A DNA stretch of 64,000 bases from Candidatus Babeliales bacterium (GCA_963743635.1 CAVUQO010000003.1:576001-640000); one strand, 5' to 3'. Shown: positions 3,889 through 48,388, counted from the first letter of the stretch. Translations and numbers: made by a program. The notes: generated by a model not told the origin, from the letters alone.

Positions 3889-3938
3889 TGCGTAATTTAC
3901 AATAAAACAAACCCTTAGTGGCTATGAAAGGTAAATGG

Positions 3939-5399
3939 ATGAGTTCTGAATCCATGCAACAAGAAAAAGTGGTAGTGACCTATAGTAAAGAGCAAGAGCT
4001 TTATTATGAACGTTTGAAGTTGTTATTTTTGTGGATAGCATTTTTCTTTATTGTTGGTTCGTATACAGTCGCAAAAGAATTAAAAGATTCGGTTTTTGTA
4101 TTTATTGTGGGACGTGCTTATATAGGCTACGCGAAAATGGCAACATTGTTTGTCTTTATTCCCGCCATTTTGCTCTATTCAAAGCTCGTTGATAAAATGC
4201 GTCGTTACTATTTGCTCTGTGCATATAGTGCCTTTTATGCGCTCAGTGGCCTCATGTTCGTCTATTTTCTCGGAGATGCTGCGATTGGTATTCCCAATGC
4301 CATCACGAGCCCGTATCGTATTGTGGGTTGGTTATTTTACTTTTTTGTTGAAGGGTATTCGCCCTTTGTAGTCAGTGTCTATTGGTCCTTTTTGAACTCA
4401 GTGAGCAGTCCTGAAACCGCCAAAAGTTATGGATTTCTGGTTTCTGGATCAAAAGTGGGTGGTATGGTCGCCTCTGCAGCTGCATGGTATTTTTTGATGC
4501 CAGTGTCTGCTACAGGTCAACTGATGTATTCAGATACGGTTAATCATCAAATTTTGCTGTTCATTGCATCTATGCTGCTTCTCTGTGTGCCCATTGTTAT
4601 TTTGATAATGATGAAAAAGATCCCGGGACGATTCCTGCATGGGTATGAAGCGGTATACCAGATTGAAAAAGAAAAAGTTAAGCACGGCGAATCAGAAACT
4701 GGTATGTTTGCGGGGCTTAAAATGCTCGTTAAGTACCCATATGTGTTGGGTATTTTCTGTATGGTATTCTTCTATGAGGTGGTGACCACCGTGTTGAGCG
4801 TGATGCGTATTTGCATTGCTCAAGATTCAACCAGTTCCATGTCCGGCGCCACGGGTGCTTTATTTGAAGGTATTTTTTGGGTTCACGCGGTTGGATTTGT
4901 TATCTCATTGATTGGGACGAGTGCATTGGTCAGATGGTTGGGTGAAAAACGGTGTTTGATGCTCATACCAATTTCCAGCGGATTGTTGCTTGCCTATTTC
5001 ATGCTGAGTTATATCGATATGTTTGCCTTTTGTACTAATGCACGGGCTGTGATGATTGGATATATTGGCCTCAAGGCTATTAACTATGCTTTTAGCTCTC
5101 CGGTCAGAGAAAGCCTTTATATACCGACAGTTAAAGAAATTAAGTTTAAATCAAAATCATGGATTGATGCCTTTGGTAGTAAATTGGGCAAATTCAATGG
5201 TGCAACGTTCAATACGTTCTCTATTTGGATGGGTCAAGCCTCATTTGTTGCAGTCCATGCCGCATTCTTTGGGCTTATAACCCTCCTTTGGTTGCTGACT
5301 GCATACCTGTTGGGCCGTCGCTTTGAACAGGCAGTGAGCAATAATGAGGTTATTGGGGTGGATAAGGATCCCTCTGAGGGAGACCAGGCCGCTGAGTAA
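3939..5399 (+). CDS. ATP/ADP translocase (NTT/TLC family), tandem paralog
   Basis: Multi-TM; KELKDSVF and LYIPTVKEIKFKSKSWIDAFGSK. Start could be 3918 or 3924 instead. Confidence 0.9.
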   Translation: MSSESMQQEKVVVTYSKEQELYYERLKLLFLWIAFFFIVGSYTVAKELKDSVFVFIVGRAYIGYAKMATLFVFIPAILLYSKLVDKMRRYYLLCAYSAFYALSGLMFVYFLGDAAIGIPNAITSPYRIVGWLFYFFVEGYSPFVVSVYWSFLNSVSSPETAKSYGFLVSGSKVGGMVASAAAWYFLMPVSATGQLMYSDTVNHQILLFIASMLLLCVPIVILIMMKKIPGRFLHGYEAVYQIEKEKVKHGESETGMFAGLKMLVKYPYVLGIFCMVFFYEVVTTVLSVMRICIAQDSTSSMSGATGALFEGIFWVHAVGFVISLIGTSALVRWLGEKRCLMLIPISSGLLLAYFMLSYIDMFAFCTNARAVMIGYIGLKAINYAFSSPVRESLYIPTVKEIKFKSKSWIDAFGSKLGKFNGATFNTFSIWMGQASFVAVHAAFFGLITLLWLLTAYLLGRRFEQAVSNNEVIGVDKDPSEGDQAAE

Positions 5400-13440: not shown

Positions 13441-15181
13441 CTACCGTAGTAAGCAGGCTTCTAAATCTTCGATGAATGATTTTTCATCGATATCATACAG
13501 TTCTGCGCCCCATCGTTTAACGACGCAGCAGGTTTTTGGATCGACCACGAGAATGGTTGGAAATCCGATCACGTTATATTCTTTATTGCAGCAAACCGGA
13601 TGGTTTTCTTCTGAGCCGTCAACTTTGAGTGGAACGCATTTTGCAAGCGTTTCGAGTACGGCTTCCTCTTTAAAGAGGGTGGCATCGAGTGCATGGCAAA
13701 TGGAGCAGTGTGGCGCCCCGACGTTTATAAATAAATGCTTGTTTTCTTCCTTTGCACGTGTGAGTGCCGTTTCATAATGCTTTTCCCATACGGAACTTTC
13801 TTCGCTAATCGGCGTTGTTACCGATTGATATGCCTTAAAGAAAAGGTGTACTGAGAATGCCAACAGCGCAATGCCCAAGAGATTCTTCGCCATGCGTATG
13901 TTAGGCGAGAAGGTATTTCGCGCAGAATACAGATAATATATGCCACTGCCCGTTACCAAGATAACAATCAGCCAAGAAATGAGCGCGGCCGGTAATAATG
14001 GCTTGAGGAAATAAAGGCAGGTTGCAAGAAGTAGTAAGCCAAAAAAGTGTTTGACCTCAACCATCCACATGCCTGCTTGCGGCAGCAATGAGAGTGAACT
14101 CGAGAAGGTGCCGATCAGTAGCAATGGAATGCTGAGTCCGATACCAAATGAAAAGAGCAAACTGAATCCAAGATACGGATTGCCAACGTGCGCTACATAA
14201 CTTAAGAGCGTCAATAATCCTGGTGATAAGCATGGTGAAGCAACCGTACCGCTTGCAGCGCCAAAAAGAAACGCTGAAAGAAATGAGCCGCCTTTCATGG
14301 AACCAAGATAACCGCCTGATAATGATTTTGGGGTACGCATTTGAAGTACGTCAAACATACAGAGCGCAAGATATAATAAGAGCAACACAATACCAATGAT
14401 CACGAATGGACTATTCATGAGCGCGCCACACTTTTTTGCCTGCAAAAGCGACAGAAAATCCAAGGCTTGCAAACGTGGTTGAAATACCAATGGTGTATGA
14501 AAGTGCTATGAAAAAATTATATATAAATGATTGTTTCGCTTGCCCTTGTAAAATGCCAACGGTAATAGGAATCATCGGGTAAATGCAGGGGGTCAAACTC
14601 ATAAGAAGGCCAAGCACGAGGACTAAGAGTAAACGCAGTGCTAAAGAATCGGTTGTTTCCACGAGGTTAGAAAGGCGTTCGGAGAATGAAAGTGTTTTTT
14701 CTTTTGGCACGGCGGTAGTTTCTACTGAGGTTGGAATATCGGCCTTTGCAAGGGTTTGTGTTTCTGGTGCTGGTGTATCAAATAGTGGTGCAGCGAGTGG
14801 AAACACATCTTCGCACATCTTTTTGTTCTCAGAGGTATAGTATGCGCAATGCAAGTATGCTTCTGAGGGAAATGATCCGCTTTTACTTTTTGCGCGCGCC
14901 GTTATTGAGAAATTTTTCGTAAATACCTGTTTGTTTTCTTTAAATGATTCATCGTATTTCGTGGTGGGCTCATAATTGGGATGCCATGAGACCAGCTCTA
15001 TATCGGGGTGATCGATCGAGAGCTTCAGAGAATCGCCGTAGATAGTGGCATTCGGGTTTAGGGCAAAATCGAGTGTTATCTCACACGTATGATCTTCAGT
15101 GTAGTTGACTGAATAGGTTGGTGTGGCATTGAGATGCATCATGAAAGAGATGGCATATAAAAAAGCGCAATAGTTCTTCAT
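13441..15181 (-). CDS. dsbD: Thiol:disulfide interchange protein DsbD (frameshift near 14440)
   Basis: Signal peptide, SLTPCIYPMIPI, ASPCLSP, LPQAGMWM and C-terminal thioredoxin CSIC; split across two ORFs. Confidence 0.9.
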
Positions 15182-15281: not shown

Positions 15282-16232
15282 TTATAACGTTGTATTCAAA
15301 ATTTTAATATTACCATTCTTTGTGTGCACGGTAATAGTCGCTTCGCCAGTACCAAGTGTACCTTCGACTTCTTGTTTGAAACGAGACCATGCATTCGGAT
15401 CAAGTTGCGTAGTCAGCGGTTTAACCGTGAGATAGTGAGCGCAGGTTAATGTTCCTTTTTGAGTATGTGCTTGGAGTTCGGCGTTTGTAGATTCGGGAAT
15501 GCGGAGTATGATGTTGCCACTGCTTGTATTGAGCGATACTTTGCCTGTAGTAGGCACCTGTAAACATTCAATATCGAGCTTACCTTTTTCAGCCTGCGCG
15601 ATGATGCCCTTTTTGGCGTTATGAATGGTAATATTGCCATGCTGTGCAAATGCTTTGACGGTACTATGCGCTTGATGAATCACAATCGAGCCGAGGTTTT
15701 CCGTTTGTGCATAAATACTGCTTTGCGCATTATCGATTTCTATATTGCCGCTTTTGCATGTTTTGGCAATAATCTGACCATTCACTTCTCTGACGATAAT
15801 ATTGCCATCATCAGAAATCAGTTCAAGACGAACATTTTCCGGTACTACGAGCACATAATCCATCGATGCCTTATTATTTTTTGAGGTGCATACGGTTTCT
15901 ATCTTGATGCATGTTTTATCAGATTTTGAATCATCAATAGTTAGGGAATCCAAATATTCCTGCTTTGATGATTTTTTTGTGGCGGTATAGAGGAATGTTT
16001 TTTTCTTCCACTCACTTTTGACGGTGATAGTTCCGCGCAAATTTTTGACGCAGATGGTTTTTCTTCCATTAAGTGGATATTCTTTTTGTATAATCTCCTC
16101 ATGTACGTTGCCCTTAAAGAGACTGTCGAACTTTTGCGAGATTTTTGATTTTGCAGAGCTGATCTGAGGTGCTATCATACATAACACAGCTAAATACCTT
16201 AATGATGTGCGAGAATAAATCATACGTGTCAC
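15282..16232 (-). CDS. Exported beta-strand repeat protein (DUF4097/adhesin-like)
   Basis: Signal peptide and repeated x-T-x-x-G-x-I units (SDDGNI, TSSGNI, TKNGNI). Confidence 0.75.
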   Translation of the reverse strand: MTRMIYSRTSLRYLAVLCMIAPQISSAKSKISQKFDSLFKGNVHEEIIQKEYPLNGRKTICVKNLRGTITVKSEWKKKTFLYTATKKSSKQEYLDSLTIDDSKSDKTCIKIETVCTSKNNKASMDYVLVVPENVRLELISDDGNIIVREVNGQIIAKTCKSGNIEIDNAQSSIYAQTENLGSIVIHQAHSTVKAFAQHGNITIHNAKKGIIAQAEKGKLDIECLQVPTTGKVSLNTSSGNIILRIPESTNAELQAHTQKGTLTCAHYLTVKPLTTQLDPNAWSRFKQEVEGTLGTGEATITVHTKNGNIKILNTTL

Positions 16233-16261
16233 CTTTTAAAAATAGAAATAGGGATAATCAG

Positions 16262-17697
16262 ATGAAGTCTACACCAATTATATCCAATCTTCAAAATGGT
16301 ATTGATCATATACTCACAAAATTCCCTGTGATACGGGAAATTGTGCACGCGATTGACGTTCGGCATGGCCGTGCGCTGTTGGTAGGCGGTGCAGTGCGTG
16401 ATATTTTTTTGGAGCGTGAATGTAAAGATATTGATATCGAAGTGCATGGTATTGCGCTTGAAATATTGGAAGAAATTTTAAAAAAGCATGGACCGGTAAG
16501 CATGGTCGGTAAATCATTTGGCGTACTGCGATTGCATTCGCTTGATGTTGATTGGTCATTACCGCGTACTGATAGTGTTGGCAGAAAGCCGGTGGTAGCG
16601 ATCGATCCTAATATGTCTTTCAAGCAGGCATTTGAGCGTAGGGATTTAACCGTGAATGCGATGGGCATCGATATAAAAACGAAAGAATTAATCGATCCCT
16701 TTGGCGGACAATCGGATCTTGAGAAAAAGATATTGCGTGCACCAAATCCAGATACTTTCGTCGAAGATCCGCTTGCGCTTTTATCGCGTGATGCAAATGA
16801 TCGCCCGATTCACACTCTATCCGGATGATATGTTGCAAGCGCTTTGTAGGAGCATGTCCGTTGCTGATGTATCGCGCGAACGCATAGAGCTTGAATTTGA
16901 AAAAATGTTACTTCAATCTGAGTTTCCTTCTCGCGGCATTCGTTGGTTGAAAGAGATCGGCCGTTTGGCTGAAGTATTGCCCGAATTGGCAGCAACGGTT
17001 GGCGTTGAACAGGATCCGCGCTGGCATCCTGAAGGAGATGTGTTTGAGCATTCCATGCAGGCAGCTTGATGCAGCGGCGGCAATTGCGCGCACCTATGAT
17101 GATCGGCATAAGGCTCTCGTTCTTTTATATACGGCACTGTGTCATGATCTGGGCAAAGCTACTACTACTCAAAAAACGCCCAATGGCGTCACCAGTTATA
17201 ATCATGAAGTAGAAGGCGTAGAAATTGCGCGCAGTATGCTCAAACGCATTACTGAAAATCATGATATAACGGCAGCAGTGCTGAAATTGATACGCCATCA
17301 TATGACGCCCGTTGTATTTGTAAAGGAGGGTGCAAAGCCAGCCGCGTATAAACGGCTTGCAAATAAATTAGCCCCAGAAGGCACCATTGCATTACTGGCA
17401 GACCTTGCATACGCGGACATGCGCGGGCGCAATCCATTTGAGCAACGTCCTTTACCTCCTGGGATTTCCGAAATACCTCCTTTAAATACTGAGATTCCTG
17501 AACTTGTAATTTTCCTTGAACGCGCACAAGAAGCATGCGTGCGTGATAAGCAGGAAGAGCCAATTTTAAAAGGGCGCGACCTGCTTGATGTGATCTCTCC
17601 AGGTAAGAAAATGGGCGAATTGCTCGATCGTGCCTATGAGATACAGATTGAGGAAGGTATAACGGATAAAGATGTCCTTAAGAAACGCGTTTTGTAG
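16262..17697 (+). CDS. cca: tRNA nucleotidyltransferase with HD domain (two frameshifts)
   Basis: VGGAVRD, DIDIE, RRDLTVNA, EDP.R, WHPEGDVFEH and CHDLGK spread over three ORFs. Confidence 0.93.
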
Positions 17698-37139: not shown

Positions 37140-38381
37140 TTAAGTAGAGGTAATTTTACTGATTATATTCATGATAATCCAGATACCATTTATCCTATTC
37201 CACGTAAGATTTTCAGTATCTCTGTTTAGAGCTCGTTGTTTTTCTTGCTCTTCTTTGGTTGCAGTTCGCTGGAGTGCGACCTCTTTTTTTATTTTTTCCA
37301 ATTCTTTCATGAAATGTGTTTGGGCAATTGGTTCGCTATTACATACTGCATTTCTATGCGCATGTTTGCAAAGATTCGAAATATTCCGAACGCTAAAATT
37401 TTTTGTTTCTCTGATGAGTGTTTCGATGTCTTCTTTGGAGCAATATTCATCGAGTTTTTGTTGCGTATATTTTTCTGAAAAATGATCGAGCAGTTCTGTA
37501 CGGTGTTGGGCATCAGGATTTTTCATATGGATGCAAAGATCGACTCTGTTCCTGAGTTCCACCGGAACTCTATTGAGATGGTTGGTAGCAAAAATGAAAA
37601 ATACGCATGGATTATTTTTATTTTTATCAATGTGGCGCCACAGTGCTTTGTAGGCAGCATCATACTCAGTACGAGCAGTTGAATTTTCATTGCAGGAAAA
37701 GGCATCTATTTCATCGATAAAAATAATAACTCGTTTTTTGTATGCTTTTCCCTCTGCGATAGCATTTTCAATGCTTTCATTAATAATCGCTTTACTGCCG
37801 CCGATAAAGCCATCCAGAACATCTGCGCCGTAAATTTCCACAAAGTGGCTATCGGTGTTTTTCGCGATTGCTTGTGCAAGTGCCGTCTTGCCTACTCCGG
37901 TAGGACCTTCCAATAAAAGTACATTATCGATTTCTTTTTCATGACGAAAGATAAGTCCTAGGCTGATTTCCTTGTTATCTTCTTTGAGTTGCTCAATGAT
38001 TGGGCGTATTTCTGGTGGGCAGGCACCGATCATGCCCGGTATTTCGTAGCGAGGTTCATCTGAATCGTAATTGGGCGTATAGTCTATTTTTTTGAGTTGT
38101 TTTTGGTACCAATAGTATCCAGCACCCAACGCAACAATCCCCCCTGCAGCGAGATGAGAAAAATAGGGAGAGCCAGTTGCAGCGTTGATGTTAGTGGTAA
38201 TTGCTGCATAAGCGTTTGAAAATATATTGCTACTATTCGCGGATTGTGCATTTTGTAGAGTACTTGCTCCAGAAGCAAAAGGGAGTGGTATATGTGCTGA
38301 TGAGTATGCAAGATTTGAAAGGCTAAGAAATAGTATAAATGTTTTTAGGGTTCGAGTGTGAATGTGCATGATAATGTGCAT
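37140..38381 (-). CDS. Signal-peptide-bearing AAA+ ATPase with an internal TM segment
   Basis: GPTGVGKT, IFIDEID, FATN and LRNR; TM LAAGGIVALGAGYYW. Confidence 0.88.
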   Translation of the reverse strand: MHIIMHIHTRTLKTFILFLSLSNLAYSSAHIPLPFASGASTLQNAQSANSSNIFSNAYAAITTNINAATGSPYFSHLAAGGIVALGAGYYWYQKQLKKIDYTPNYDSDEPRYEIPGMIGACPPEIRPIIEQLKEDNKEISLGLIFRHEKEIDNVLLLEGPTGVGKTALAQAIAKNTDSHFVEIYGADVLDGFIGGSKAIINESIENAIAEGKAYKKRVIIFIDEIDAFSCNENSTARTEYDAAYKALWRHIDKNKNNPCVFFIFATNHLNRVPVELRNRVDLCIHMKNPDAQHRTELLDHFSEKYTQQKLDEYCSKEDIETLIRETKNFSVRNISNLCKHAHRNAVCNSEPIAQTHFMKELEKIKKEVALQRTATKEEQEKQRALNRDTENLTWNRINGIWIIMNIISKITST

Positions 38382-38455
38382 GATTTGGTACCTGAATGAA
38401 AGACACACTCTATTGAGCATGTCTTTCCAGTTTGTATAATATATTTCTTGGGAGA

Positions 38456-39592
38456 TTAAGAGTACTGGCGTAAAAGGCGCTCAGTGCTTTCTTCATTAAA
38501 CGCAGCTCTTTGTATGTTATATGAGGCTTGCTGTAATTTGAGTATTTCTTGCTGTATTGCGTCCTGTTCGTTCTCTCTTTTTAAGGTTCGTTGCTTTTCG
38601 AGTTCAGCTTCAGTTGGAGTATGTTGTAGCGCAACTTTTGCCTTCATTGCCTGTAAGGCGTACAGGAGATGATTTTCGGTAATTGGTGTGTTTTCACGTG
38701 CTGCATAATCACGACTGGAAAAACAGAGGTCTTCAATATCACGAATACTGAAATGTTCCGTTTGTTCTACTACCGTTTGTATGCACGTATCGGTACAGTA
38801 TTCTGCAAGTTTTTTCTGTGCGAGTTCCTTTGAAAAACAATCTAGTAATTCCCGGCGTTGTTGAGCATCAGGATTTTTCATCGAAACAATCTTACGGCCT
38901 ATTCTGTTTTTGAATGGAAGGGGTAAGCGATCCAAGCGATTGGTTGCAAAGATAAAAAGAACTTCTGGTTTGTACTGATTGTCATCTATATAGCACCACA
39001 AGGCTGCCATCGCAGCATCGTATTCAGTATGAGCGGCTGATGTTTCATTATTTGCAAGTTTGTCTATTTCATCAAATAAAATGACTACTCGCTTGTTAAG
39101 CGCTTTGCCTTCGGCCATTGCTTTGTCAATTTCTGCCATAAGGGCTTCTGTGGTTCCTCCAAGGTAGCGATTCAGAAGCTTAGGTGTGTTAATTTTAAAG
39201 AAATGGCTGTCTGATTCTTTGGCTATTGCTTCGGCAAGTCTTGTTTTGCCGATTCCAGTCGGTCCTTCGAACAGGAGCAGATTTTTATCTTCGCTTTTTT
39301 CAGAAGGTTTTGGTCCAAAACTAATTTTGTTAGCTTCTCGCATGAGACGTTTGATGGTGTCGCATGCGTCAGTTGGACATGTTCCGGCCATGCCGGACAC
39401 ATAACAAGGAGGAATTTTCGGAGTGTAAGGATTCTCAACTGGTGGTGTTGGAGCTGCTGGCGGTGTTACTGGAGCAGTAGGCGGAGGCGGTGATGGGTAA
39501 AGCCAATATGCTTGCACTGAAATGTGTGAAATGGCAACAAGTAGAATAAAAATTTTGCGCGCGTAAGAATATGTGCATCTGGTGTTATGCAT
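38456..39592 (-). CDS. Signal-peptide-bearing AAA+ ATPase with a Pro-rich N-terminus (paralog of 37140)
   Basis: GPTGIGKT, ILFDEID; shares TEYDAA..ALW..ID and MKNPDAQ.R with its neighbour. Confidence 0.88.
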   Translation of the reverse strand: MHNTRCTYSYARKIFILLVAISHISVQAYWLYPSPPPPTAPVTPPAAPTPPVENPYTPKIPPCYVSGMAGTCPTDACDTIKRLMREANKISFGPKPSEKSEDKNLLLFEGPTGIGKTRLAEAIAKESDSHFFKINTPKLLNRYLGGTTEALMAEIDKAMAEGKALNKRVVILFDEIDKLANNETSAAHTEYDAAMAALWCYIDDNQYKPEVLFIFATNRLDRLPLPFKNRIGRKIVSMKNPDAQQRRELLDCFSKELAQKKLAEYCTDTCIQTVVEQTEHFSIRDIEDLCFSSRDYAARENTPITENHLLYALQAMKAKVALQHTPTEAELEKQRTLKRENEQDAIQQEILKLQQASYNIQRAAFNEESTERLLRQYS

Positions 39593-39717: not shown

Positions 39718-42462
39718 TCACTGGAAGTTATATTCCTTGCAGCGGCGGTTGACGGAAGAGCGGTTGACGCCGAGAAATGCGGCGATTTGATTTTGGTTTT
39801 TGAATTTGTTCCAGAGTATCGTCATCGTCTTATGATCGCGCAGCGCATGTTTGCCCATGCGGGCTGCTTGGATGAGTGTTGGATCGCTCACCGTATATGC
39901 TGGATCAAATTGAGTTTCTTGGTAGATATGATTCTTTTTTGATTTATCGATGAGTAGTTGTTGAATACGTTTTTTCAATGCAGTTAAACTTACTGGACGT
40001 TGATGCGCAAGTTTGTTTTTTTCGCTCGGCGTGAGCTCAAAGAGCGTTTTGAAATCGTTGACCGTGAGTGCTTGCTGTGTAAAGCCATCAGCGAGTGCGT
40101 GCAGTTCGTCTTCAGGCAGTGTCAGCAAAGATGGCATGGAGAGAGTTGTTCTTTTTAATTCGTTAAACAGTGCTTTGGAGAAGATACCTTCTTGTACGAG
40201 CGCTTGTAAATTATGATTCGTCGAACAAATGACGCGCACATTACTCGCGGCGTGCGTATCACTTTTGAAGGTGCGATAGAATCCTGTTTTAAGAAACTCT
40301 GCCAAATATTCCTGCGTTTCAAGATTCATGAAATGCACATTTTCGATAAAGAGGGTGCCCGTAGTACTCAGTTTTTCAAGAAGCGGTTGCACACCATTTT
40401 CTATGCCGAGCATAGGATTTATACCGAATAATTTGATAGCAAGATCAAAATTGGTATTTGGGTAGTGCAATTTTATGACGTGCAGCTGTTCGCGCAGATT
40501 AATGTGATGCAATATTTCTACCGTTGCGAGAAGGTCATCTTCCGGCATATCGAGTAAAATTGCTTTTTTGGTGAGCGCAACTTGCAACAGTTCGATTTTA
40601 AAATTCAGGAGTATTTCACCAGATCCTGGAATGAGCTGATTGATGAGCCTTCCCGATTCGGTAGTTTCTAAATAGAGTAAATAATCCCACGTGGTAGGAT
40701 CTTGGAGTAAATCAATTTGTTTGGAAATAATATCGGATATATCGGGCCGGCAGATGGTGATGATAACATTATTATGCTCAAGATTGGGAACTGCGGAGAT
40801 GACGAGCTTGTTATCCGTTTGATCCTGCGTGAGTGCCGTTTGCGGCGCCTTATATTCCTCCACTTGGTGTGCGATGTGCCGTAGCGTTTTGGTGAGTGGG
40901 TGACCTTCTTGTTGGTTGAGGTTGATGTTGATCAAATCTTTAGCGATTTTGTTGCCGTAAATAAAACGGCGATTCTTATAAAACAGAATACCAATCTCTT
41001 TTTGCTTTGAATTACGCAGGAATGAACGCATGCTTTCTTTATATTGATTAATTTCTTGGTGTTTTGCATAGAGCTCTTCCTTGAGGAGCTTTTCTTGCTG
41101 AATGAGCCCATCAACACTGCGGTTTTGCAGTAGATTAATACTTTTTCCTAAGTAACTCGCAAAGACAAGCATTTCGTCGTGCTCAACATTGCCATAAAAT
41201 TCATGCTCACGCGCATGCCGTTCGACGATTATATAGGCGATAATTTTATTGTGTTCAAAGATGGGAATGAAGATATCCGCATTAATTGATTCAAGAAAGT
41301 TAAGGATGATCGTACGCGTCGGTTTTTGCTCGTAAAAATTACTGAAGGCTATTTCATCATGGATAAGTACTTTCATGCGGTTAATATAATCGCAGACCGC
41401 TTCATCATGCGTAGTCATGAACTGCTCTACAAACGCCTCGAGTTTTGAAGTTTCTCCGGATATTGTTGATTGCGCGACGTGGTTGAGGTTGCGAATCGAA
41501 AGTGCTGTTTTATTGCGAGGTATGTCAAAGGCGTTCTTGAAAAAATGCTGCGTCACTTGTCCGAGTTCATTGAGGGTTGTTGCCTGACTGAGCTGCTCAA
41601 GTACCTCTTTGAAATCATCGATGAAATCAAAATGGCGCGTTGACTGAACGTGATTTTTAAAATTAAGAAAGCGTAATCCTATTACATTTTTTATGCCGTA
41701 ATAAATGGCATACGTTATTAGGATTGTGGAAACGCTGACGATGGCATACAAATTTCCTTGCAGAAGGCCCCTAAAATTAAACTGACATGCTTGGAGTGTT
41801 TCGGTGATGGTATATGGTAATACCAGATATAAGGTGAAGATGCGGAGTTGTTTTTGCAGGATTTTGGGCACTTGTGATTTGCGTATGGTGCGTACTGCGG
41901 AAATAAGGATAGGCAGGGTGATGCATACCAGCAGATATATTGCGACGATGCGCATCATAAATGCTTCAAGGGGCAGGTTAGGATCAAGCATGGGAAGGCG
42001 AAAGGCTTCTCCACGCTCAGCTTTCGATATTCCGTTGGCAAAAAAAATGGCGAGCATCAAAAAATAGGCGCCGAATGCAGCACTGATGAGCGAGAATGTT
42101 TTATGAATTCTATTGAGCCGAAATGTTTTGGTTGAAAGACTCTCAATTAATAAGGCGAGTGATTGATATTGCAGTATGAGAAATGTCCATGATATTCGTA
42201 CGAAAAAGGTATATACCCCATATGGCATATCGGGAAAAGCGAGCTGACGCGCAAATTTTACGATCCATGCGAGATCACCAAACATTGAGCCGATGAGAGT
42301 GCAGAGCAAGAAGAGCCATGGTTTATTGAGCGGAGTGGTACGCAAACCTTGAGGTATAATTAATTTGAGCAAATAGGTTTTGACGGCAAAAGAAATTAAA
42401 GTTGCGGTCATGATGAATCCAGGACTCGCTAAGATACGATAGATTTCTTCGATGAATATCAT
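39718..42462 (-). CDS. Membrane-bound one-component regulator 1 (multi-TM, GAF-like, degenerate sigma54-activator AAA+, Fis-type HTH)
   Basis: About 7 N-terminal TMs; GAF-like ADIFIPI...IIAYIIV; GTLFIENVHFM...NVRVICSTN...LFNEL; C-terminal [20 protein letters not shown]. Confidence 0.85.
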   Translation of the reverse strand: MIFIEEIYRILASPGFIMTATLISFAVKTYLLKLIIPQGLRTTPLNKPWLFLLCTLIGSMFGDLAWIVKFARQLAFPDMPYGVYTFFVRISWTFLILQYQSLALLIESLSTKTFRLNRIHKTFSLISAAFGAYFLMLAIFFANGISKAERGEAFRLPMLDPNLPLEAFMMRIVAIYLLVCITLPILISAVRTIRKSQVPKILQKQLRIFTLYLVLPYTITETLQACQFNFRGLLQGNLYAIVSVSTILITYAIYYGIKNVIGLRFLNFKNHVQSTRHFDFIDDFKEVLEQLSQATTLNELGQVTQHFFKNAFDIPRNKTALSIRNLNHVAQSTISGETSKLEAFVEQFMTTHDEAVCDYINRMKVLIHDEIAFSNFYEQKPTRTIILNFLESINADIFIPIFEHNKIIAYIIVERHAREHEFYGNVEHDEMLVFASYLGKSINLLQNRSVDGLIQQEKLLKEELYAKHQEINQYKESMRSFLRNSKQKEIGILFYKNRRFIYGNKIAKDLININLNQQEGHPLTKTLRHIAHQVEEYKAPQTALTQDQTDNKLVISAVPNLEHNNVIITICRPDISDIISKQIDLLQDPTTWDYLLYLETTESGRLINQLIPGSGEILLNFKIELLQVALTKKAILLDMPEDDLLATVEILHHINLREQLHVIKLHYPNTNFDLAIKLFGINPMLGIENGVQPLLEKLSTTGTLFIENVHFMNLETQEYLAEFLKTGFYRTFKSDTHAASNVRVICSTNHNLQALVQEGIFSKALFNELKRTTLSMPSLLTLPEDELHALADGFTQQALTVNDFKTLFELTPSEKNKLAHQRPVSLTALKKRIQQLLIDKSKKNHIYQETQFDPAYTVSDPTLIQAARMGKHALRDHKTMTILWNKFKNQNQIAAFLGVNRSSVNRRCKEYNFQ

Positions 42463-42467
42463 TTTTA

Positions 42468-42496
42468 TTGATCTTGTGTTATGGTCCCGTTATACT
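42468..42496 (+). promoter_or_regulatory. sigma70-type promoter for peptide gene 1
   Basis: TTGATC (42468-73), 17-bp spacer, TATACT (42491-96); same position relative to the regulator ATG as at 47441. Confidence 0.7.
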
Positions 42497-42639
42497 ACTA
42501 CGCAAATTGTATAGAAGTATTAACACTAAAAACGCAATATGTTAAGCATTAACTATTTTTGGGTATTACTTTCTAGTGTTGGAAAAATTGTATTGGTGAT
42601 GTATTCAATGTTTTGGTTATAACCTTAGGGGATATTATT

Positions 42640-42762
42640 ATGATAAATCGTAAAAAATTATTGAGACTTGGATATGTGATTGTGTTCTTTAATGTGGGAT
42701 GTGCATTCGCAGCATGGCCGCCACCACCAGATGATGCTCCTCAGATGAATATCCAAAAGTAA
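42640..42762 (+). CDS. 40-aa secreted peptide precursor MINRKKLLRLGYVIVFFNVGCAFAAWPPPPDDAPQMNIQK
   Basis: AGGGG RBS, basic n-region, hydrophobic h-region, AFA cleavage motif, terminator 19 bp downstream. Confidence 0.78.
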   Translation: MINRKKLLRLGYVIVFFNVGCAFAAWPPPPDDAPQMNIQK

Positions 42763-42780
42763 CAAAACATAAAAAATAAA

Positions 42781-42820
42781 AAAACTGCACTGTAGATTTG
42801 AGTCTACGGTGCAGTTTTTT
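42781..42820. terminator. Bidirectional terminator, homologous to 44619-44662
   Basis: AAAACTGCACTGTAGA...TCTACGGTGCAGTTTT. Confidence 0.88.
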
Positions 42821-42829
42821 AATAGCTTT

Positions 42830-42874
42830 ACCCATTCGATACCTCGCTTCGCTTGGTCCTCAGGGCGAACGGGG
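42830..42874 (+). repeat. Repeat family B copy
   Basis: ACCCATTCGA...CCTCAGGGCGAACGGG. Confidence 0.8.
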
Positions 42875-42915
42875 AATAAATATCTTTTTTGCGCTGTTTC
42901 TTAGATGAGTCCACC

Positions 42916-44262
42916 TCAACTCACCACCACCGGCACCAAGGCACTTTCTCCACCGAGCGAGCTCACGGCACTCACAAAGAGGTTGTTGCCACTATCGCCA
43001 GCGGGTACGAATGCATTAAACGTGAGTGGTGATGTTGCAAGCACGTTCCCCACCAGCGTGGTGCCGTTATAAATATTGTATGACGTTACGTCAGGCGTTA
43101 CGCTCGCAGTCCAGGTGATGGTCAGCATGCGCGCCGTTTGCAACAGGAATACATTATTTTTGCGCACGCCAACAACATTCGTTGGTGCGGCAACTCCCGC
43201 CGAGGGGATCACTTGGCCAGTTACCGCTAGTGCATACGCACCTCCACTGACTGCGATCGGCGTTCCTGCTAATGGTGAGCCCACCGTAATTGGCGTAACG
43301 GTATTATTACTATTATTACCAGTTGCGACGTATACCGTTCTACCATCAAGAGAAATTGCAATATTTTCTAAATTCTTAGATATATTAGACACCCCCATAA
43401 TGGTACTGGTTACACTCGGCGTCAGCAAGGTAAGATCAATAACACTCACCGTTCCATCACCCAGATTGGTTACATACGCATAATGATTATCAGGGGTTAT
43501 GGCAATGCCATAAGGAGAAGTACCAACCGAAATAGGATAGCCCGCAGGCGCAGGCGAAAGATCAAACGGTTGTACTTCATTTTTGCCAGCGAAAACGACA
43601 TACGCAGTATCAGTAGCCGTATCAATCGCAACACCAAATGGAAATGAAGTATCAGGATTGGATTGATAGTATGTCTGATTCAATGTTAAAAGATCAACTT
43701 TGTAAAATCCGTATGCATACTGGCTCAGGGATATTTGAATAAGAAGCGTTATATAGGCAACATGATTACTAATGACCAAGCCGCCAATCTCCTCTTCTTG
43801 CCCCACCAATGGATTAGTAAGAACAGTAACAGATCCCAGAATAGGCGCTGATGGATCTGCGATATTCACTGGCACAAGAATTGCTGCATTTCCCAGATCT
43901 AATCCTGCTATATATGCGGTTGTTCCATCAATGGCTATAGCTTCGGGGATAAGGGGAATACCACTTAAATCCGTAGTACTCACAATGTTATTGGTGGCAA
44001 TATCAATTGCTAGTAACGTGTTATGATTATTATCAATCATGTATGCGGTTTTATTATCCGTTGATATCGCGACCCCGACAAGATTCGCACTATTGGGCAC
44101 TGCGAACGGCGAGCCGGCAATGGGAGCGCCCGTTGCTTGATCAATTACCGAGAATGATGAACTTGTGCCATTGGCCACATACACAAACGGTGCGGCATCG
44201 ACTGCTTGCCAAGAAATGAGTAGTGATATGCTGAGTACAATAAGAGATTTTTGTACGTTCAT
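42916..44262 (-). CDS. Secreted YVTN/YncE-type beta-propeller with an FN3-like C-terminus
   Basis: Signal peptide, FVYVAN, PYGIAITPDNHYAYVTN..DGTVSVID and ITWTAS...SYNIY. Confidence 0.85.
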   Translation of the reverse strand: MNVQKSLIVLSISLLISWQAVDAAPFVYVANGTSSSFSVIDQATGAPIAGSPFAVPNSANLVGVAISTDNKTAYMIDNNHNTLLAIDIATNNIVSTTDLSGIPLIPEAIAIDGTTAYIAGLDLGNAAILVPVNIADPSAPILGSVTVLTNPLVGQEEEIGGLVISNHVAYITLLIQISLSQYAYGFYKVDLLTLNQTYYQSNPDTSFPFGVAIDTATDTAYVVFAGKNEVQPFDLSPAPAGYPISVGTSPYGIAITPDNHYAYVTNLGDGTVSVIDLTLLTPSVTSTIMGVSNISKNLENIAISLDGRTVYVATGNNSNNTVTPITVGSPLAGTPIAVSGGAYALAVTGQVIPSAGVAAPTNVVGVRKNNVFLLQTARMLTITWTASVTPDVTSYNIYNGTTLVGNVLATSPLTFNAFVPAGDSGNNLFVSAVSSLGGESALVPVVVS

Positions 44263-44394
44263 TTTTTTCCTTTTTTTGTTAGGGGTTATCTTCAAAATAT
44301 ATTTACCATTAAACGTACTGAGAATATACAATATTCGTTCCTCGTGCCGGATTCAATTATTACTAACCATTGCTTAGATGCGATCGCCCTCATT

Positions 44395-44551
44395 CCCCGT
44401 TAGCCCTAGTCCTGAGCTTATCGAAGGGTCGAATCGGTACAGAGTAAGATGATTTACACTATCTAAACCATGCAACGTTTATGTATCCCCGTACCCATTC
44501 GAGACATTTTTCATTTCGCTTTGCTTATGAAAAACCCTCAGGGCGAACGGG
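44395..44551. repeat. Repeat family B inverted pair
   Basis: 44493-44551 is nearly identical to 24201-24257; a degenerate inverted copy lies at 44395-44438. Confidence 0.85.
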
Positions 44552-44618
44552 TTAAAGTAACTTTTTATTATTTTAAATTATAATTGCTGCAGCGCTTGTT
44601 TAACAAATTACGATGTTC

Positions 44619-44662
44619 AAAGAAAATGCACCGTAGATTCAATACCTACGGTGCATTTTCTT
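44619..44662 (-). terminator. Terminator of regulator 2
   Basis: AAGAAAATGCACCGTAG...CTACGGTGCATTTTCTT. Confidence 0.85.
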
Positions 44663-44715
44663 TATAGCTTTAGCGTACCAGAAATACAAGCTATATATTA
44701 TTTGTATGGCCTCGA

Positions 44716-47435
44716 TTATTCCAAATTATATTCTTTGCAGCGGCGATTCACCGATGAGCGATTAACGCCCAGGAATGTTGCAATCTTACTTTGATTTTCA
44801 AATTTGCGCCAGAGCATGGTGAATATTTTGCGATCTTTGAGCGCCTGTTTGCCAAGGCGCGAAGCTTCAATAAGATCAGGATCGGAAACTTCATACGCAG
44901 GATCAAATTCAGTTTCATTATAAATATTGTTCTTCTTGGATTTTGCAACGAGTAAGTGCTGTACCTTATTTTTCAGTTCATGCAAACTGGTCGGACGGCT
45001 ATGGATGAGTTTAATTTTTCACGATCGGTGAATTCAAGGAAATTCTTCAAATCGTCCGTTTTGATTGCTTGTTCGGTCAATCCATCAGCCAAGCTGGGCA
45101 ATTCATTTTCAGGCAAGGTAACGAGCGATGGCATTGCTAGAGAGGTGCGAGATAACTCATTAAAGAGGGTCGCAGAGAACTTTTGTTCACGCACGAGCGT
45201 TTGTAAATCTTGATTGGTTGAGCAGATAATGCGTACCGTAGTTGGAATGCGTTGCTCGCTTTTCACGCGGCGATAGAAGCCATACCGAATCAATTCAGCC
45301 AAATATTCTTGGCTTTCAGAATCAAGGAAATGAATGTTCTGAATAAAGAGGGTAGCCATTATCGGCGAGTGTTCCAAGATAGGTTTTTGTTCTTGCGGAT
45401 GGCCAAAAAGAGTGGATTGATGCCAAAGAGTTTGATCGCAATTTCGCATCGTAGTGCAAGGGCCGCTCAATTTGAGCATGTGCAAGCGTATCGCGCAGAC
45501 TGATATGGTGAATGATTTCAACGGTTGGCATCAAGATCTTCATCATTCATTTCAAGCAAAATAGCTTTTTTACTGAGCGCGGTTTTTAGAAGTTCGATTT
45601 TAAAGTTTAAAAGCGTTTCACCAGTCCCAGGAATAAGCTGATTAATAAGTTGTCCTGATTTGGTAGTCTCAAGATAGAGCAAATAATCCCATTGCGTTGG
45701 ATCTTTTAAATGATCGATCTGTTTTTTCAAAATGTCTGAAATTTCAGGATGGTATACGGTGATGATGATATTATTTTGTTCGAGATTGGGTACGCCTGAA
45801 AATACGATCTTATTGCCCGCTACGTCATAGGTAATACAACTTTGGGGCGATTTATACTCTTCAACCTGGCGCGCAATATGGCGGGCAGCTTTGGTCAGTG
45901 CATGGCCTTCTTGGGTATTGATGTTAATTTTAATGAGATCTTTTGCGGCCTTATTGCCAAAAATGAACCGGCGATTTTTATAAAAGAGAATACCGATCTC
46001 TTTTTGTGGTGAATTGCGCAGGAATGAACGAATACTTTCTTTATACTGATTCACTTCTTGATGCTTGCGATACAGCTCTTCTTTGAGCTCTTTTTCGTGA
46101 TGCATGAGTGATTCAAGGTTGCGATGCTGCATAAGGTTGATGATGTTCGCCAGATAGCTGCCAAATACAAGCATTTCGTCGCGCTCAACGTTACTATAAA
46201 ACTGTTCAGGCCGCGCGCCACGATCGACGACTAAGTAACCAACCAAACGTTGTTTTTGATAAATAGGAAGGAAGATATCAGCATTAATTGTTTCAAGAAA
46301 TTGCAGCATCAGGTTACTGATATCGCTTTTTTCATAGAAGTTACTAAAAGCAATCTCATCATGAATGAGAATTCCTTCATTTTTAAGTACTGTTTCAAAG
46401 CGTTGACTATGGGTGCTCGATAAAGTTTTCCACCAATGTTGCAGTAGTATTCACGTAAAACGGATGCCCTTCATTCATTTCAGATTTTTCAATATGCCGT
46501 ACGAATAGCATCGTTTTATTGAGGGGCACATTAAACGCCTCTTTAAAATAGGTCTGTGTAATATGGCGCAAGCTTTGTTCATTCGTCGCATGACTCAATG
46601 ATTCAAGCACCTGCTTAAAGCCGTCGACAAAATGAAACTGACGCGGAATTTCTACATGCCGCTTTAAATTCAAGAACCTGAGGGACATCATACGCCGCGA
46701 ACAGTAATAGATGGCATAGGTCAGAATGATGGTTGATATACTAACCGCTGCATAACTATTGGTAATCCAGGTAGGATGAAAAACGAGCGGATATACTTGA
46801 ATTAGATCGGTGATCCAAAAAGGGATAATAAATACTTGGGTAATAATGCGTGCTTGTGTTGAAAGAATGCGTGGTGAATTATTAGAACGCAGTTTGCGAA
46901 ATACCAGAAAAAGACTGAAGGGAATAAGAAAAATAGAGAGAAAAAATGATTGATATTTACGCACTTCAAATTCTATTGGTGGCCGTGCGGCTGAATTGAG
47001 ACAATTAATATCGTAAAAAGCAAGACCAACTACAAACATGAAGAAACAACTACTCAATAAAATAGAGAGTTTTTGGCGAATGTTAAATTCGTTTTTTTGT
47101 TCAGTTAAATTCTCTATAAAGATCGATAGGGATTGATAGAGAATTCCTGTAAAAGCCCATGCTAAACGAATGATGAACAGCTTTGCGGAATATGGTATTG
47201 CAGGAAATATGAGCTGCCGTGTCAATTCAATTATCCACGCAAAATCACTGATTGCAGCGCTGCCTAGGATAATTAACAATAAGTACCATGGCTTTTTATT
47301 AGTAGGCGAAATATTTTTTTGTAGCACCAGCGTGGCAAAGATGCCAATTTTTAATAAAAATGAGCATGAGGTAATAGCCAGTAATAAATACTGATTACCG
47401 ATGGTGCATTCGAGAAAATCGAGAAAATGTGTCAT
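44716..47435 (-). CDS. Membrane-bound one-component regulator 2, paralog of 39718-42462 (several frameshifts)
   Basis: The ORF pieces align in order with regulator 1 ([51 protein letters not shown]); could also be a true pseudogene. Confidence 0.85.
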
Positions 47436-47440
47436 CTTTA

Positions 47441-47469
47441 TTGATCTTATAAAAGGTTGTCGTTATAAT
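47441..47469 (+). promoter_or_regulatory. sigma70-type promoter for peptide gene 2
   Basis: TTGATC (47441-46), 17-bp spacer, TATAAT (47464-69). Confidence 0.75.
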
Positions 47470-47523
47470 ATAGTTCATACTGTAAATTAATTTAGTTTTA
47501 AAACCCCCACACAGGAGAACTGT

Positions 47524-47628
47524 ATGTCTAAGTTAATCACATTGATTAGCAAGATAAGCAGAGCACATGTTGCTTTAGTTTTATCGGTTGTTGCCTATTT
47601 GCTAGGTGATTATCCACCAGGCGATTAA
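47524..47628 (+). CDS. 34-aa peptide precursor MSKLITLISKISRAHVALVLSVVAYLLGDYPPGD
   Basis: AGGAG RBS 6 nt upstream, hydrophobic core, DYPPGD tail; syntenic with peptide 1. Confidence 0.75.
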   Translation: MSKLITLISKISRAHVALVLSVVAYLLGDYPPGD

Positions 47629-47710
47629 TCTAACCTCAATCTACCATAAAAAGCGGCGTTTGTCTTATAACAATGCCGAATAAGAGAGTTTTTATGATGA
47701 AGAATTCTAT

Positions 47711-48388
47711 GTGAAACAGTCGATAGCTCAAAAGCGTCAGAAAGCTGTTGCCATTGTAACAATGTTACGAAAAGCGACGGCGAATATGGAAAAACCGGCT
47801 GTTTCACATGTGGTCCAGGCCTATGGACGCGATCCATACCTCATCCTTATCAGCTGTTTGCTGAGTCTTCGGGCCAAAGATACGGTATCCCTACCGATAG
47901 CCCTCAAGCTGTTCAAGTTGGCAAAAACGCCCCAAGAAATCGTTAAAATCCCCCGTCACGAGCTTGAAAAGCTATTTTTCTCCATTGGCTATTATCGCCA
48001 AAAGGCCAAAGCGGTCCATGAAGTGAGTCAAGAACTCATTGAGCGATTCGATGGCAAAGTTCCCAAAACACAAAAAGAATTACTCTCTCTGAAGGGAGTC
48101 GGCATCAAAACGGCCAATCTTGTTTTGGGTGAGGCATTTGGTATTCCTGCCATTTGCGTGGATATCCATGTCCATCGCATCTCAAATCGCCTCGGGTTAG
48201 TGGAAACTAAGACTGCCGAGGAAACCGAGGTAGCGCTCCAAGAGATCCTACCCAAAGAATATTGGATTGAATTTAATTATCTTTTGGTGACCTGGGGGCA
48301 GAATATCTGCGTTCCCGTTTCCCCGTTTTGCTCACGCTGCGTGCTGAGCGATATTTGTCCGAAAAAGGGCGTCATCCGGCGGCGTTAA
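47711..48388 (+). CDS. nth: Endonuclease III
   Basis: HhH motif LKGVGIKTA, VDIHVHRISNR and C-x6-C-x2-C-x5-C. Confidence 0.96.
   Translation: MKQSIAQKRQKAVAIVTMLRKATANMEKPAVSHVVQAYGRDPYLILISCLLSLRAKDTVSLPIALKLFKLAKTPQEIVKIPRHELEKLFFSIGYYRQKAKAVHEVSQELIERFDGKVPKTQKELLSLKGVGIKTANLVLGEAFGIPAICVDIHVHRISNRLGLVETKTAEETEVALQEILPKEYWIEFNYLLVTWGQNICVPVSPFCSRCVLSDICPKKGVIRRR

Follow-up and report, generated by a model that had tools for sequence, protein, structure and literature searches.

We analysed a 64,000-nucleotide (nt) stretch of DNA from a Candidatus Babeliales bacterium (GCA_963743635.1, CAVUQO010000003.1:576001-640000), hereafter the window, which carries two paralogous genes for a predicted membrane-bound regulator, each facing a very small open reading frame (ORF) on the opposite strand. 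The regulator gene together with its divergent micro-peptide gene is a conserved, phylum-wide two-gene module of the Dependentiae. A preliminary description of the locus had reported two large genes of about 910 amino acids (aa); this was correct for gene 1, the 'B' paralogue, an intact ORF of 914 aa, and had to be amended for gene 2, the 'A' paralogue, which is broken into four ORFs. Both small ORFs, of 40 and 34 aa, were recovered where they had been described, head-to-head with the large genes and preceded by Shine-Dalgarno-like elements located 6-7 nt before the ATG. The features of the locus are collected in Table 1.

Table 1. Features of the regulator/micro-peptide locus, with positions counted from the first nucleotide of the window.
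Feature	Position	Strand	Description
Gene 1, regulator 'B' paralogue	39718..42462	-	Intact 914-aa ORF; predicted seven-transmembrane (7TM) domain, alpha/beta middle, degenerate AAA+ domain, C-terminal helix-turn-helix (HTH)
Putative C-terminal three-helix DNA-binding region, gene 1 residues 877-910	39733..39834	-	AlphaFold2 (AF2) helices; weak HTH_8 and HTH_24 matches below cut-off
AAA+ core, gene 1 residues ~635-800	40063..40560	-	Without Walker A, Walker B and GAFTGA; alignment to 3dzd_A, Foldseek
Seven predicted transmembrane (TM) helices, gene 1 residues 14-266	41665..42423	-	AF2, predicted local distance difference test (pLDDT) 78.7
Sigma70-type promoter for the small-ORF transcript	42468..42496	+	TTGATC-17 nt-TATACT; -35 element starts 6 nt from gene 1 ATG
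27-aa hydrophobic ORF	42539..42622	+	76 nt from gene 1, the usual family distance; no Shine-Dalgarno site, no Pro-Pro end
Small ORF1, 40 aa, MINRKKLLRLGYVIVFFNVGCAFAAWPPPPDDAPQMNIQK	42640..42762	+	AGGGG Shine-Dalgarno-like site; downstream terminator-like hairpin
Two-way intrinsic terminator candidate	42779..42820	.	Hairpin, A-run and T-run, between convergent ORF1 and beta-propeller gene
Gene 2, regulator 'A' paralogue	44716..47435	-	Frameshifted into four ORFs; N-terminal 342-aa piece with TM domain intact
Sigma70-type promoter for ORF2	47441..47469	+	TTGATC-17 nt-TATAAT; -35 element starts 6 nt from gene 2 ATG
Small ORF2, 34 aa, canonical A type, MSKLITLISKISRAHVALVLSVVAYLLGDYPPGD	47524..47628	+	AGGAG Shine-Dalgarno-like site; 88 nt from regulator
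nth (endonuclease III)	47711..48388	+	Co-directional with ORF2, 82 nt downstream; conserved neighbourhood

The four pieces of gene 2 occupy positions 46407-47435, 45518-46309, 44973-45521 and 44716-44985 and encode 342, 263, 182 and 89 aa, respectively. In tblastn searches with gene 1 and the closest class-A relative as queries, the homology jumped frame three times, and further shifts were read by eye at the junctions near 45450 and 45405. With several breaks within 2.7 kb next to an unbroken paralogue, gene 2 looks like a pseudogene. Most other large genes of the window are whole; since a DsbD-like gene (13441-15181, minus strand) and a gene resembling CCA-adding enzyme/poly(A) polymerase (16169-17697, plus strand) also appear to be split into two ORFs each, decay of gene 2 and an assembly error are not fully separable. 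At another locus, L001 (9075-11782, plus strand), the second, downstream regulator copy is likewise split, into 520 and 382 aa, and as a second case it raises the possibility that loss of one regulator paralogue may be recurrent.

Of 7999 candidates scored, 527 were homologues of gene 1 at E<=0.001, the best 120 of the 527 being 51-100% identical to it and 820-921 aa long, and the regulators of the closest relatives 75-82% identical. The names of the homologues, where given almost always Candidatus Dependentiae or Babeliales, assigned the window organism to the Dependentiae (TM6/Babeliales). An initial suspicion of a listed pathogen, raised by the GC content and the intracellular lifestyle, was rejected on the evidence of the homologues and loci. 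A scan of one genome per species detected 147 stretches encoding regulator relatives, the best 80 of which resolved into 68 loci with record titles of Dependentiae, Babeliales, TM6 or unclassified bins. From these we retained full-length regulators (>850 aa, C-terminal signature present) with at least 400 nt of upstream sequence and added the broken copy of the window, which resulted in a sample of 79 regulators from 53 loci and the window; 15 of the 68 loci held no qualifying copy and were left out. Homologues, loci and window genes all agree with the earlier suggestion of a diderm intracellular bacterium, as the Dependentiae are a diderm and host-dependent phylum.

The occurrence of the small ORF was then scored across the 79 regulators by a strict test, which called for a divergent ORF no longer than 70 aa whose start lay within 200 nt of the regulator and whose last nine residues included Pro-Pro. 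Such an ORF was found beside 67/79 regulators, as compared with 4/79 on the mirror strand, 1.6 on average and at most 4 of 79 in 50 shuffles, and 18/397 beside other ORFs of at least 150 aa. Relaxed criteria, admitting Pro-Gly and Pro-Thr variants and longer tails, raised the count to 73/79, and hand inspection added L021_7035, whose regulator start had been called too far upstream, and L036_5001, where the ORF lies further away, giving 75/79. The expectation that regulator homologues consistently have a divergent, coding-constrained small ORF was thus confirmed. These results also show that conserved micro-ORFs can be found by geometry and a two-residue motif where sequence searches fail: with ORF1 as the single query, no candidate in the protein collection shared enough words and no homologue was found, and a peptide alignment headed by ORF1 gave 289 candidates in the same collection, none at E<=0.01.

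The peptide ORFs have a median length of 31 aa and nearly all combine an ATG start with a GGAG-like element; their starts lie at a median of 83 nt from the regulator, and within 56-115 nt in 69/73 cases, some of these distances being approximate. Exactly two residues follow the Pro-Pro in 42/69 peptides and one to three in 60/69, while the residue before it is mostly Trp, Phe, Gly or Tyr. In an alignment of 68 peptides, only Met1 and the two prolines were near-invariant, and the mean identity was 16%. The proline codons vary freely among CCA, CCT, CCG and CCC, indicating that the constraint acts on the amino acids. The ratio of non-synonymous to synonymous differences (pN/pS), pooled over 17 neighbour pairs hand-picked from the tree, was 0.53 with synonymous sites near saturation, and the closest peptide pair differed by five synonymous changes and one non-synonymous change.

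A hydropathy of at least 1.6 over a 15-residue window, a threshold criterion only, was reached by 67/75 peptides; the signal-peptide-like body ascribed to the two window peptides therefore describes most of the family and is not universal, the remaining eight not being hydrophobic enough. Net charge was higher at the N-terminal than at the C-terminal side in 54/75 peptides, and in 32/34 of the acidic class. From the hydrophobic segment and the more positive N-terminal side, insertion with the N-terminus inside and the C-terminus outside (N-in/C-out) is predicted. Most peptides lack a signal-peptidase-like site, and only 5-7 residues extend beyond the hydrophobic helix. At locus L058 (5721-5906, minus strand), a 62-aa peptide with several Cys residues contains Gly-Gly-Pro-Pro-Gly twice, and its tail looks internally duplicated.

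ORF1 is itself atypical, since its start lies 177 nt from the regulator as against the family median and 12 residues follow its first Pro-Pro; an Ala-x-Ala-type site was recognised by eye before the Pro-rich tail. The hairpin downstream of ORF1 had been missed by the terminator scan and was then confirmed by folding (-26.6 kcal/mol, z -7.8; 0/200 shuffles folded as well). ORF1 begins 18 nt after the 27-aa ORF of Table 1, which may be a decayed duplicate or a remnant from a rearranged peptide gene.

Both small ORFs of the window are preceded by a sigma70-type promoter. When the corresponding pattern (TTGnnn, 16-18 nt, TAnnnT) was searched across the relatives, it was present toward the small ORF in 65/79 upstream regions, as compared with 6/79 on the opposite strand, 4.45 on average in shuffles and 29/418 for other ORFs. 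The spacer measured 17 nt in 58 of the 65 promoters, and in 46 the -35 element lay 3-8 nt from the regulator ATG. A generic promoter scan of the region returned 17 sites against 17.4 expected; this is chance level, and the weight of the promoters thus comes only from their conservation across loci. The regulators have no Shine-Dalgarno-like element (e.g., 42463-42475 and 47436-47448) and the small ORFs have strong GGAG-type sites, the bases before the regulator ATG being the reverse of the -35 box of the peptide promoter. A conserved ATTATACT corresponds to TATAAT on the regulator strand, so that the divergent promoters may share their -10 region and compete. Given the overlap of the two promoters, the regulator probably controls both the peptide gene and itself in a feedback loop.

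The gene neighbourhood was surveyed through 56 neighbour proteins at 10 loci. A conserved order was observed, with thrS, nth and small ORF A on one strand and regulator A on the other, followed after regulator A often by small ORF B and regulator B and then by a XerC/D-type recombinase and a PBP2-type transpeptidase. Downstream, 51/73 small ORFs are followed by a gene in the same direction, in most cases nth, at a distance of 6-240 nt (median about 67), and 21/73 have a convergent neighbour. In the window, the gap between ORF2 and nth (47629-47710, plus strand) holds only a modest hairpin (-15.3 kcal/mol, z -2.1), and the two genes may be co-transcribed from the peptide promoter.

The frequent co-directional gene fits a leader-peptide arrangement, in which the small ORF would act in cis: ribosome pausing at the Pro-Pro would control termination or read-through into the downstream gene, at most A-type loci nth, or antisense transcription into the regulator or the use of the divergent promoter, and the product itself would be unimportant. 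The fixed short distance of the Pro-Pro from the stop codon agrees with such a role, as do the hairpins of z<=-2 found just downstream of 20/73 small ORFs and the prevalence of Gly as the commonest residue after Pro-Pro (16/69). Moreover, PMC12992588 and PMC10987492 document arrest peptides among small ORFs of secretory or membrane type whose C-termini carry RAPP-like or LPPP motifs. However, the arrest core R-(A/G/S/D)-P-(P/G) occurs in 0/75 of the Dependentiae peptides, and in the Arg-type tails a bulky aromatic residue takes the place at which arrest requires Ala or Gly; in PMC12992588, AAPP and AGPP serve as arrest-defective controls. The 21/73 small ORFs without a co-directional gene downstream keep the same peptide features, hydrophobicity and a basic N-terminus are conserved although the sequence is not and would be unneeded in a stalling leader, and the constant partner is the regulator rather than any downstream gene. 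We therefore judge a purely cis-acting leader to be improbable. A SecM-type force-sensing arrest peptide was also considered and rejected, since a chain of 31 residues would still be in the ribosome tunnel when the Pro-Pro is decoded and could not sense the force of membrane insertion.

The architecture of the regulator was examined by structure prediction and profile searches. The AF2 model of gene 1, based on the family alignment, showed seven long helices (residues 14-41, 47-74, 81-109, 118-140, 165-195, 200-229 and 235-266), an alpha/beta domain at 280-446, a long helix of low confidence at 450-484 and a second alpha/beta domain at 491-585, after which come the AAA+ domain and, at the C-terminal end, a unit of three helices. 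A separate model of the N-terminal ORF of gene 2 likewise gave seven helices, with a pLDDT of 88.1 and a predicted TM-score (pTM) of 0.81. The loops outside the membrane are predicted to be short, with almost nothing exposed. Several polar or aromatic residues of the TM helices were invariant or nearly so in a 20-sequence alignment (D63, W66, R89, W92 and Q98-Y99-Q100), and the conserved polar residues were placed in the outer halves of TM2, TM3 and TM5.

No Pfam family matched the TM domain in 75/75 members scanned, and HisKA_7TM (PF16927) matched 0/75 TM domains at E<=1; a language-model look-alike search returned HisKA_7TM as a lead with a score of 0.90. Searching 1.84 billion representatives retrieved the domain in 308 proteins. 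Among the best 150 of these, 89 were at least 850 aa long and the TM domain was found only in this regulator architecture: 0/35 mid-length carriers had other Pfam output domains, HisKA and HATPase included, and 6/35 showed the same AAA+ match. As gene 1 also has no HisKA or HATPase Pfam domain, the view of a kinase-free regulator was borne out. The best fold matches of the TM domain in the PDB were class A G-protein-coupled receptors (GPCRs), in many cases receptors for peptides (best E 6.3e-4, TM-score 0.52), with only two matches at E<=1e-3, TM-scores of 0.4-0.54 and identities of 10-17%; this likeness is a lead and may reflect only a generic 7TM topology.

Residues 1-640 of gene 1 had no Pfam match even at E<=10, and the profiles of the two middle regions retrieved nothing below E 0.1 among PDB sequences. 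The secondary structure of the middle region is alpha/beta in the AF2 model, and GAF/PAS clusters scored 0.87-0.90 for it in the language-model search, which is a lead only. In the AAA+ domain, Pfam Sigma54_activat (PF00158) matched residues 698-774 of gene 1 with an E of 3.1e-11, corresponding to profile positions 91-167, i.e., the C-terminal half only. The family profile matched NtrC-family and PspF structures with E values from 1.9e-18 to 1e-15, 3dzd_A being aligned over 226 positions, and Foldseek retrieved PspF, FlrC and NtrX at E of about 1e-8, with target-normalised TM-scores of about 0.63-0.69 for PspF and FlrC. In the profile alignment, Walker A (GESGTGKE) and Walker B (LFLDEV) of 3dzd_A face 'lpeeDl' and 'lfikni', and the position of the GAFTGA loop reads 'in.Pifgvee' (GINPMLGIENG in gene 1). 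Walker A, the GAFTGA loop, Walker B and the Arg-finger region were replaced in every row of the 20-sequence alignment. As its ATPase and sigma54-contact motifs are replaced family-wide, the AAA+ domain cannot work as a sigma54 activator, and a role in structure or in relaying the signal describes it best. In agreement, all 23 NCBIfam families of enhancer-binding proteins (EBPs; PrdR, DhaR, NtrX, PspF, TyrR and others) scored far below cut-off, the best reaching 56.5 bits against 795, with alignments that extended to the C-terminus of gene 1. No sigma54 family match was found among the 38 window ORFs scanned, a scan that covered the window only.

The C-terminal region is the most conserved block of the 20-sequence alignment, and HTH_8 matched it in gene 1 with an E of 0.014, below cut-off. 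TPR or Rgg matches in Pfam were absent from gene 1. Of the architecture put forward in the preliminary description, the approximately seven TM helices (AF2) and the sigma54-activator-type AAA+ fold (Pfam, PDB profile and Foldseek) were retained, whereas the GAF-like domain, the coiled coil and the Fis-type HTH found no curated support.

The relationships between the two regulators were investigated by FastTree and a quick IQ-TREE run, which agreed in grouping gene 1 with the downstream 'B' copies of tandem pairs; gene 2 grouped with the 'A' copies of L001, L058, L028 and L041, with a support of 96 in the Shimodaira-Hasegawa-like approximate likelihood ratio test (SH-aLRT). Two regulators on one strand occurred in 25/54 sources. 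The copies of the window are thus two old paralogue lineages, one of them broken here, and not alleles within a population, which leaves the proposed pair of pherotypes unsupported. The tandem pairs of L036, L039, L045 and L055 and that of L052 cluster apart from the main A/B split; in the second copies of L036 and L039 the peptide ORF lies much further off, and the second copies of L045 and L055 and the first copy of L052 have no peptide ORF. This pattern suggests separate duplications with different fates, and from the sequences the regulator and its peptide seem to have been duplicated as a unit more than once.

The two lineages differ in their peptides. Arg/Lys tails just before the aromatic-Pro-Pro were present in 15/75 peptides, concentrated on the B side, and Asp/Glu tails in 34/75, dominant on the A side. 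The Arg-type tail required 8 changes on the tree as against a minimum of 10 in 500 label shuffles; since such clustering also arises from shared ancestry alone, it shows that paralogue-specific peptide types were kept and not co-evolution as such. Between the two window copies, identity was 36.5% in the TM region and 58.6%, 47.1% and 67.3% in the later segments, in line with the earlier observation that the TM regions have diverged and the cytoplasmic halves are more similar. In the family, the mean pairwise difference was 0.68 for the TM region, as compared with 0.47 for the remainder of the protein. Peptide distance was correlated with TM-domain distance when the cytoplasmic part was controlled for (partial Mantel test, partial r 0.30, 0/999 permutations), and the reverse partial correlation, of peptide with cytoplasmic part with the TM domain controlled for, was weaker (0.12, 22/999), the Mantel test being liberal for related sequences. 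The peptide therefore co-varies with the TM domain, as had been predicted, and these two are the fast-evolving parts of the module. Inspection of one subclade by eye revealed no consistent charge swap in the TM domain matching the acidic and Arg tails.

These data bear on the possibility that the micro-protein is a real small membrane protein unrelated to the regulator, e.g., a subunit or stabiliser of some other complex, the linkage reflecting a frozen gene order and a shared bidirectional promoter. The order of thrS, nth, regulator, recombinase and PBP2 is indeed strongly conserved in general around the locus. However, duplicated regulator copies each have their own peptide gene at the same spacing, also outside the nth neighbourhood, and regulator and peptide were seemingly duplicated as a unit repeatedly, as in the L036/L039/L045/L055 pairs and the L052 pair. 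In addition, the type of peptide follows the paralogue, and the peptides diverge more in step with the TM domain than with the cytoplasmic part. Linkage without a functional relationship thus appears decidedly improbable.

In the interpretation that we favour, with a probability of roughly one half, the 7TM bundle of each regulator senses the micro-protein encoded next to it, either in the membrane or once it has been released locally, and the regulator then controls the overlapping promoters. The regulator would be an integral-membrane one-component transcription factor consisting of the 7TM domain, a GAF/PAS-like middle, an ATPase-dead AAA+ domain, no longer able to bind or hydrolyse ATP or to touch sigma54, and the C-terminal HTH. 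The micro-protein, of about 31 residues, would start with a basic N-terminus, continue with a single hydrophobic helix and finish with (acidic or Arg)-(aromatic or Gly)-Pro-Pro-x-x, and would most likely insert in the inner membrane N-in/C-out with its 5-7-residue Pro-Pro end at the outer face. The 7TM bundle would recognise the helix and the short Pro-Pro tail of the peptide inside the membrane or on its outer surface, the peptide being a permanent partner or a locally released one, and its occupancy would be signalled through the cytoplasmic domains to the HTH, with no need for ATP hydrolysis or sigma54. The data establish that the module exists and is conserved, that the peptide is under coding constraint and has a promoter, that each paralogue has its type of peptide and that peptide and TM domain co-vary; the insertion and topology of the micro-protein, its physical binding, and the sign and targets of the regulation are what we infer.

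Alternatively, the peptide might be exported and processed and accumulate outside the cell or in the host vacuole, to be sensed there by the 7TM domain, which would amount to kinase-free quorum sensing. In the Rgg/SHP and other RRNPP systems of Bacillota, a one-component regulator lies beside a short hydrophobic propeptide gene, often divergent and with a conserved C-terminus, and is subject to autoregulation; the layout described here resembles these cassettes. The Ala-x-Ala-type site that precedes the Pro-rich tail of ORF1, as read by eye, would suit processing, the fixed distance of the Pro-Pro from the free C-terminus would suit a receptor pocket that reads the end of a peptide, and the co-variation of peptide and TM domain and the weak fold matches of the latter to peptide GPCRs point in the same direction. 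On the other hand, the 56 neighbour proteins of the 10 loci, which were those for thrS, nth, the recombinase and PBP2, included no linked exporter, processing protease or importer; a signal-peptidase-like site is lacking in most peptides, few residues remain after the helix and 8/75 peptides are not hydrophobic. The module belongs to the core of the phylum, in one or two copies and fixed synteny, unlike a variable pherotype locus, and the passage of a peptide across the outer membrane would be unexplained. Furthermore, a genome paper on one Dependentiae member (PMC6561590) lists only a handful of regulators and calls quorum-sensing mechanisms absent, by annotation. Export and extracellular accumulation are, on balance, unlikely.

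Several observations weigh against reading of the micro-protein by its own regulator. Four of the 79 regulators (L042_8754, L045_8832, L052_2377 and L055_8184) have no such ORF, and the eight non-hydrophobic peptides, which all belong to the B side, are too polar to form a TM segment. In the window, it is the broken regulator that adjoins the canonical peptide, and the atypical one belongs to the intact regulator. The co-directional gene behind most small ORFs fits a leader as well. The likeness to GPCRs is marginal, in a PDB that is rich in GPCRs. The partial Mantel tests and the tree label counts are inflated by shared ancestry. Regulator starts were called automatically and at least one (L021_7035) too far upstream, which makes some of the spacings approximate.

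The module was compared with known systems. In RRNPP systems, a soluble receptor of TPR type binds the re-imported peptide in the cytoplasm. The Dependentiae module shares with these systems a short hydrophobic peptide gene adjoining the regulator (75/79) and differs from them in a 7TM receptor whose AAA+ domain is dead and which has no match to TPR, in a peptide signature of x-Pro-Pro-x-x, in the lack of an exporter among the scanned neighbours and in its diderm, host-dependent phylum. From Agr/Com systems it is distinguished by a receptor without HisKA and HATPase Pfam domains. Single-helix small membrane proteins such as MgrB act in the membrane on sensors such as PhoQ, which are histidine kinases, and their genes are usually unlinked; the Dependentiae micro-protein is similarly single-helix (67/75 by hydropathy) and probably under the control of its sensor in a feedback loop, whereas here the sensor itself would be the transcription factor, and the gene pair is tightly linked and duplicated as a unit.

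EBPs of the NtrC, PspF and TyrR group have in common with the Dependentiae regulator the AAA+ fold and the C-terminal HTH; the latter differs by its N-terminal 7TM domain, by the replaced ATPase and sigma54 motifs and by the adjacent conserved promoter, which is sigma70-type and not -24/-12. ToxR and CadC are membrane-anchored one-component regulators in which the DNA-binding domain is N-terminal and a single TM helix connects to a sensor domain in the periplasm. The Dependentiae protein would likewise be a kinase-free transcription factor embedded in the inner membrane, in reversed order, with seven TM helices and almost nothing outside the membrane. With class A peptide GPCRs, among which the ETB, neurotensin and viral chemokine receptors were the best matches, the resemblance concerns the fold only, a seven-helix up-down bundle with its N-terminus outside; GPCR sequence motifs and a G-protein partner are missing from the Dependentiae TM domain. 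The RAPP-type and other C-terminal proline arrest peptides (ApdA, ApdP and uA_LPPP) are also small ORFs with a hydrophobic localisation-type segment and a proline motif near the stop codon. The Dependentiae ORFs are much shorter, at about 31 aa, lack the R-(A/G)-P-P core in 75/75 cases and, in 21/73, have no downstream co-directional gene.

The titles and abstracts of the literature on Dependentiae regulators, sigma-54, peptide quorum sensing and transmembrane enhancer-binding proteins contained no description of the module, although supplements may hold annotations. The Dependentiae are widespread parasites of protists; hardly any member of the phylum has been cultured, their genomes are tiny and recognisable regulators are very few. 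The module would be a leading candidate for how they sense their own state inside the host. In it, a core phylum-wide regulator with a Pfam-unmatched membrane domain is tied to a micro-ORF that escaped our searches of the protein collection. If the favoured interpretation is true, it would add a membrane-integral, kinase-free, ATPase-dead EBP-like receptor to the bacterial modes of peptide reading, and the 75 natural receptor-peptide pairs in two old paralogue lines provide a comparative data set for the study of specificity. A more far-reaching version, which we regard as doubtful, is that a GPCR-like 7TM receptor fused to a transcription factor and reading a linked Pro-Pro micro-peptide constitutes a new class of bacterial peptide receptor, a Dependentiae master switch that senses confinement or cell number in the host and times the developmental cycle, with the two paralogue/peptide pairs as separate channels.

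Finally, some further genes of the window were recorded. A secreted-looking beta-propeller gene of 471 aa (42916-44331, minus strand), with a YVTN-type repeat and weak lactonase-like matches, is inserted between regulator A and small ORF B; the regulators are only 105-423 nt apart in most relatives. Directly downstream of gene 1 lie tandem paralogous AAA ATPase genes of 426 and 378 aa (37140-39592, minus strand), both with hydrophobic, Pro-rich N-termini, and similar AAA genes occur near the regulator in L001 and L061. Two adjacent genes for TLC-type ATP/ADP translocases, which are typical of energy parasites, are located at 2533-5399 on the plus strand.

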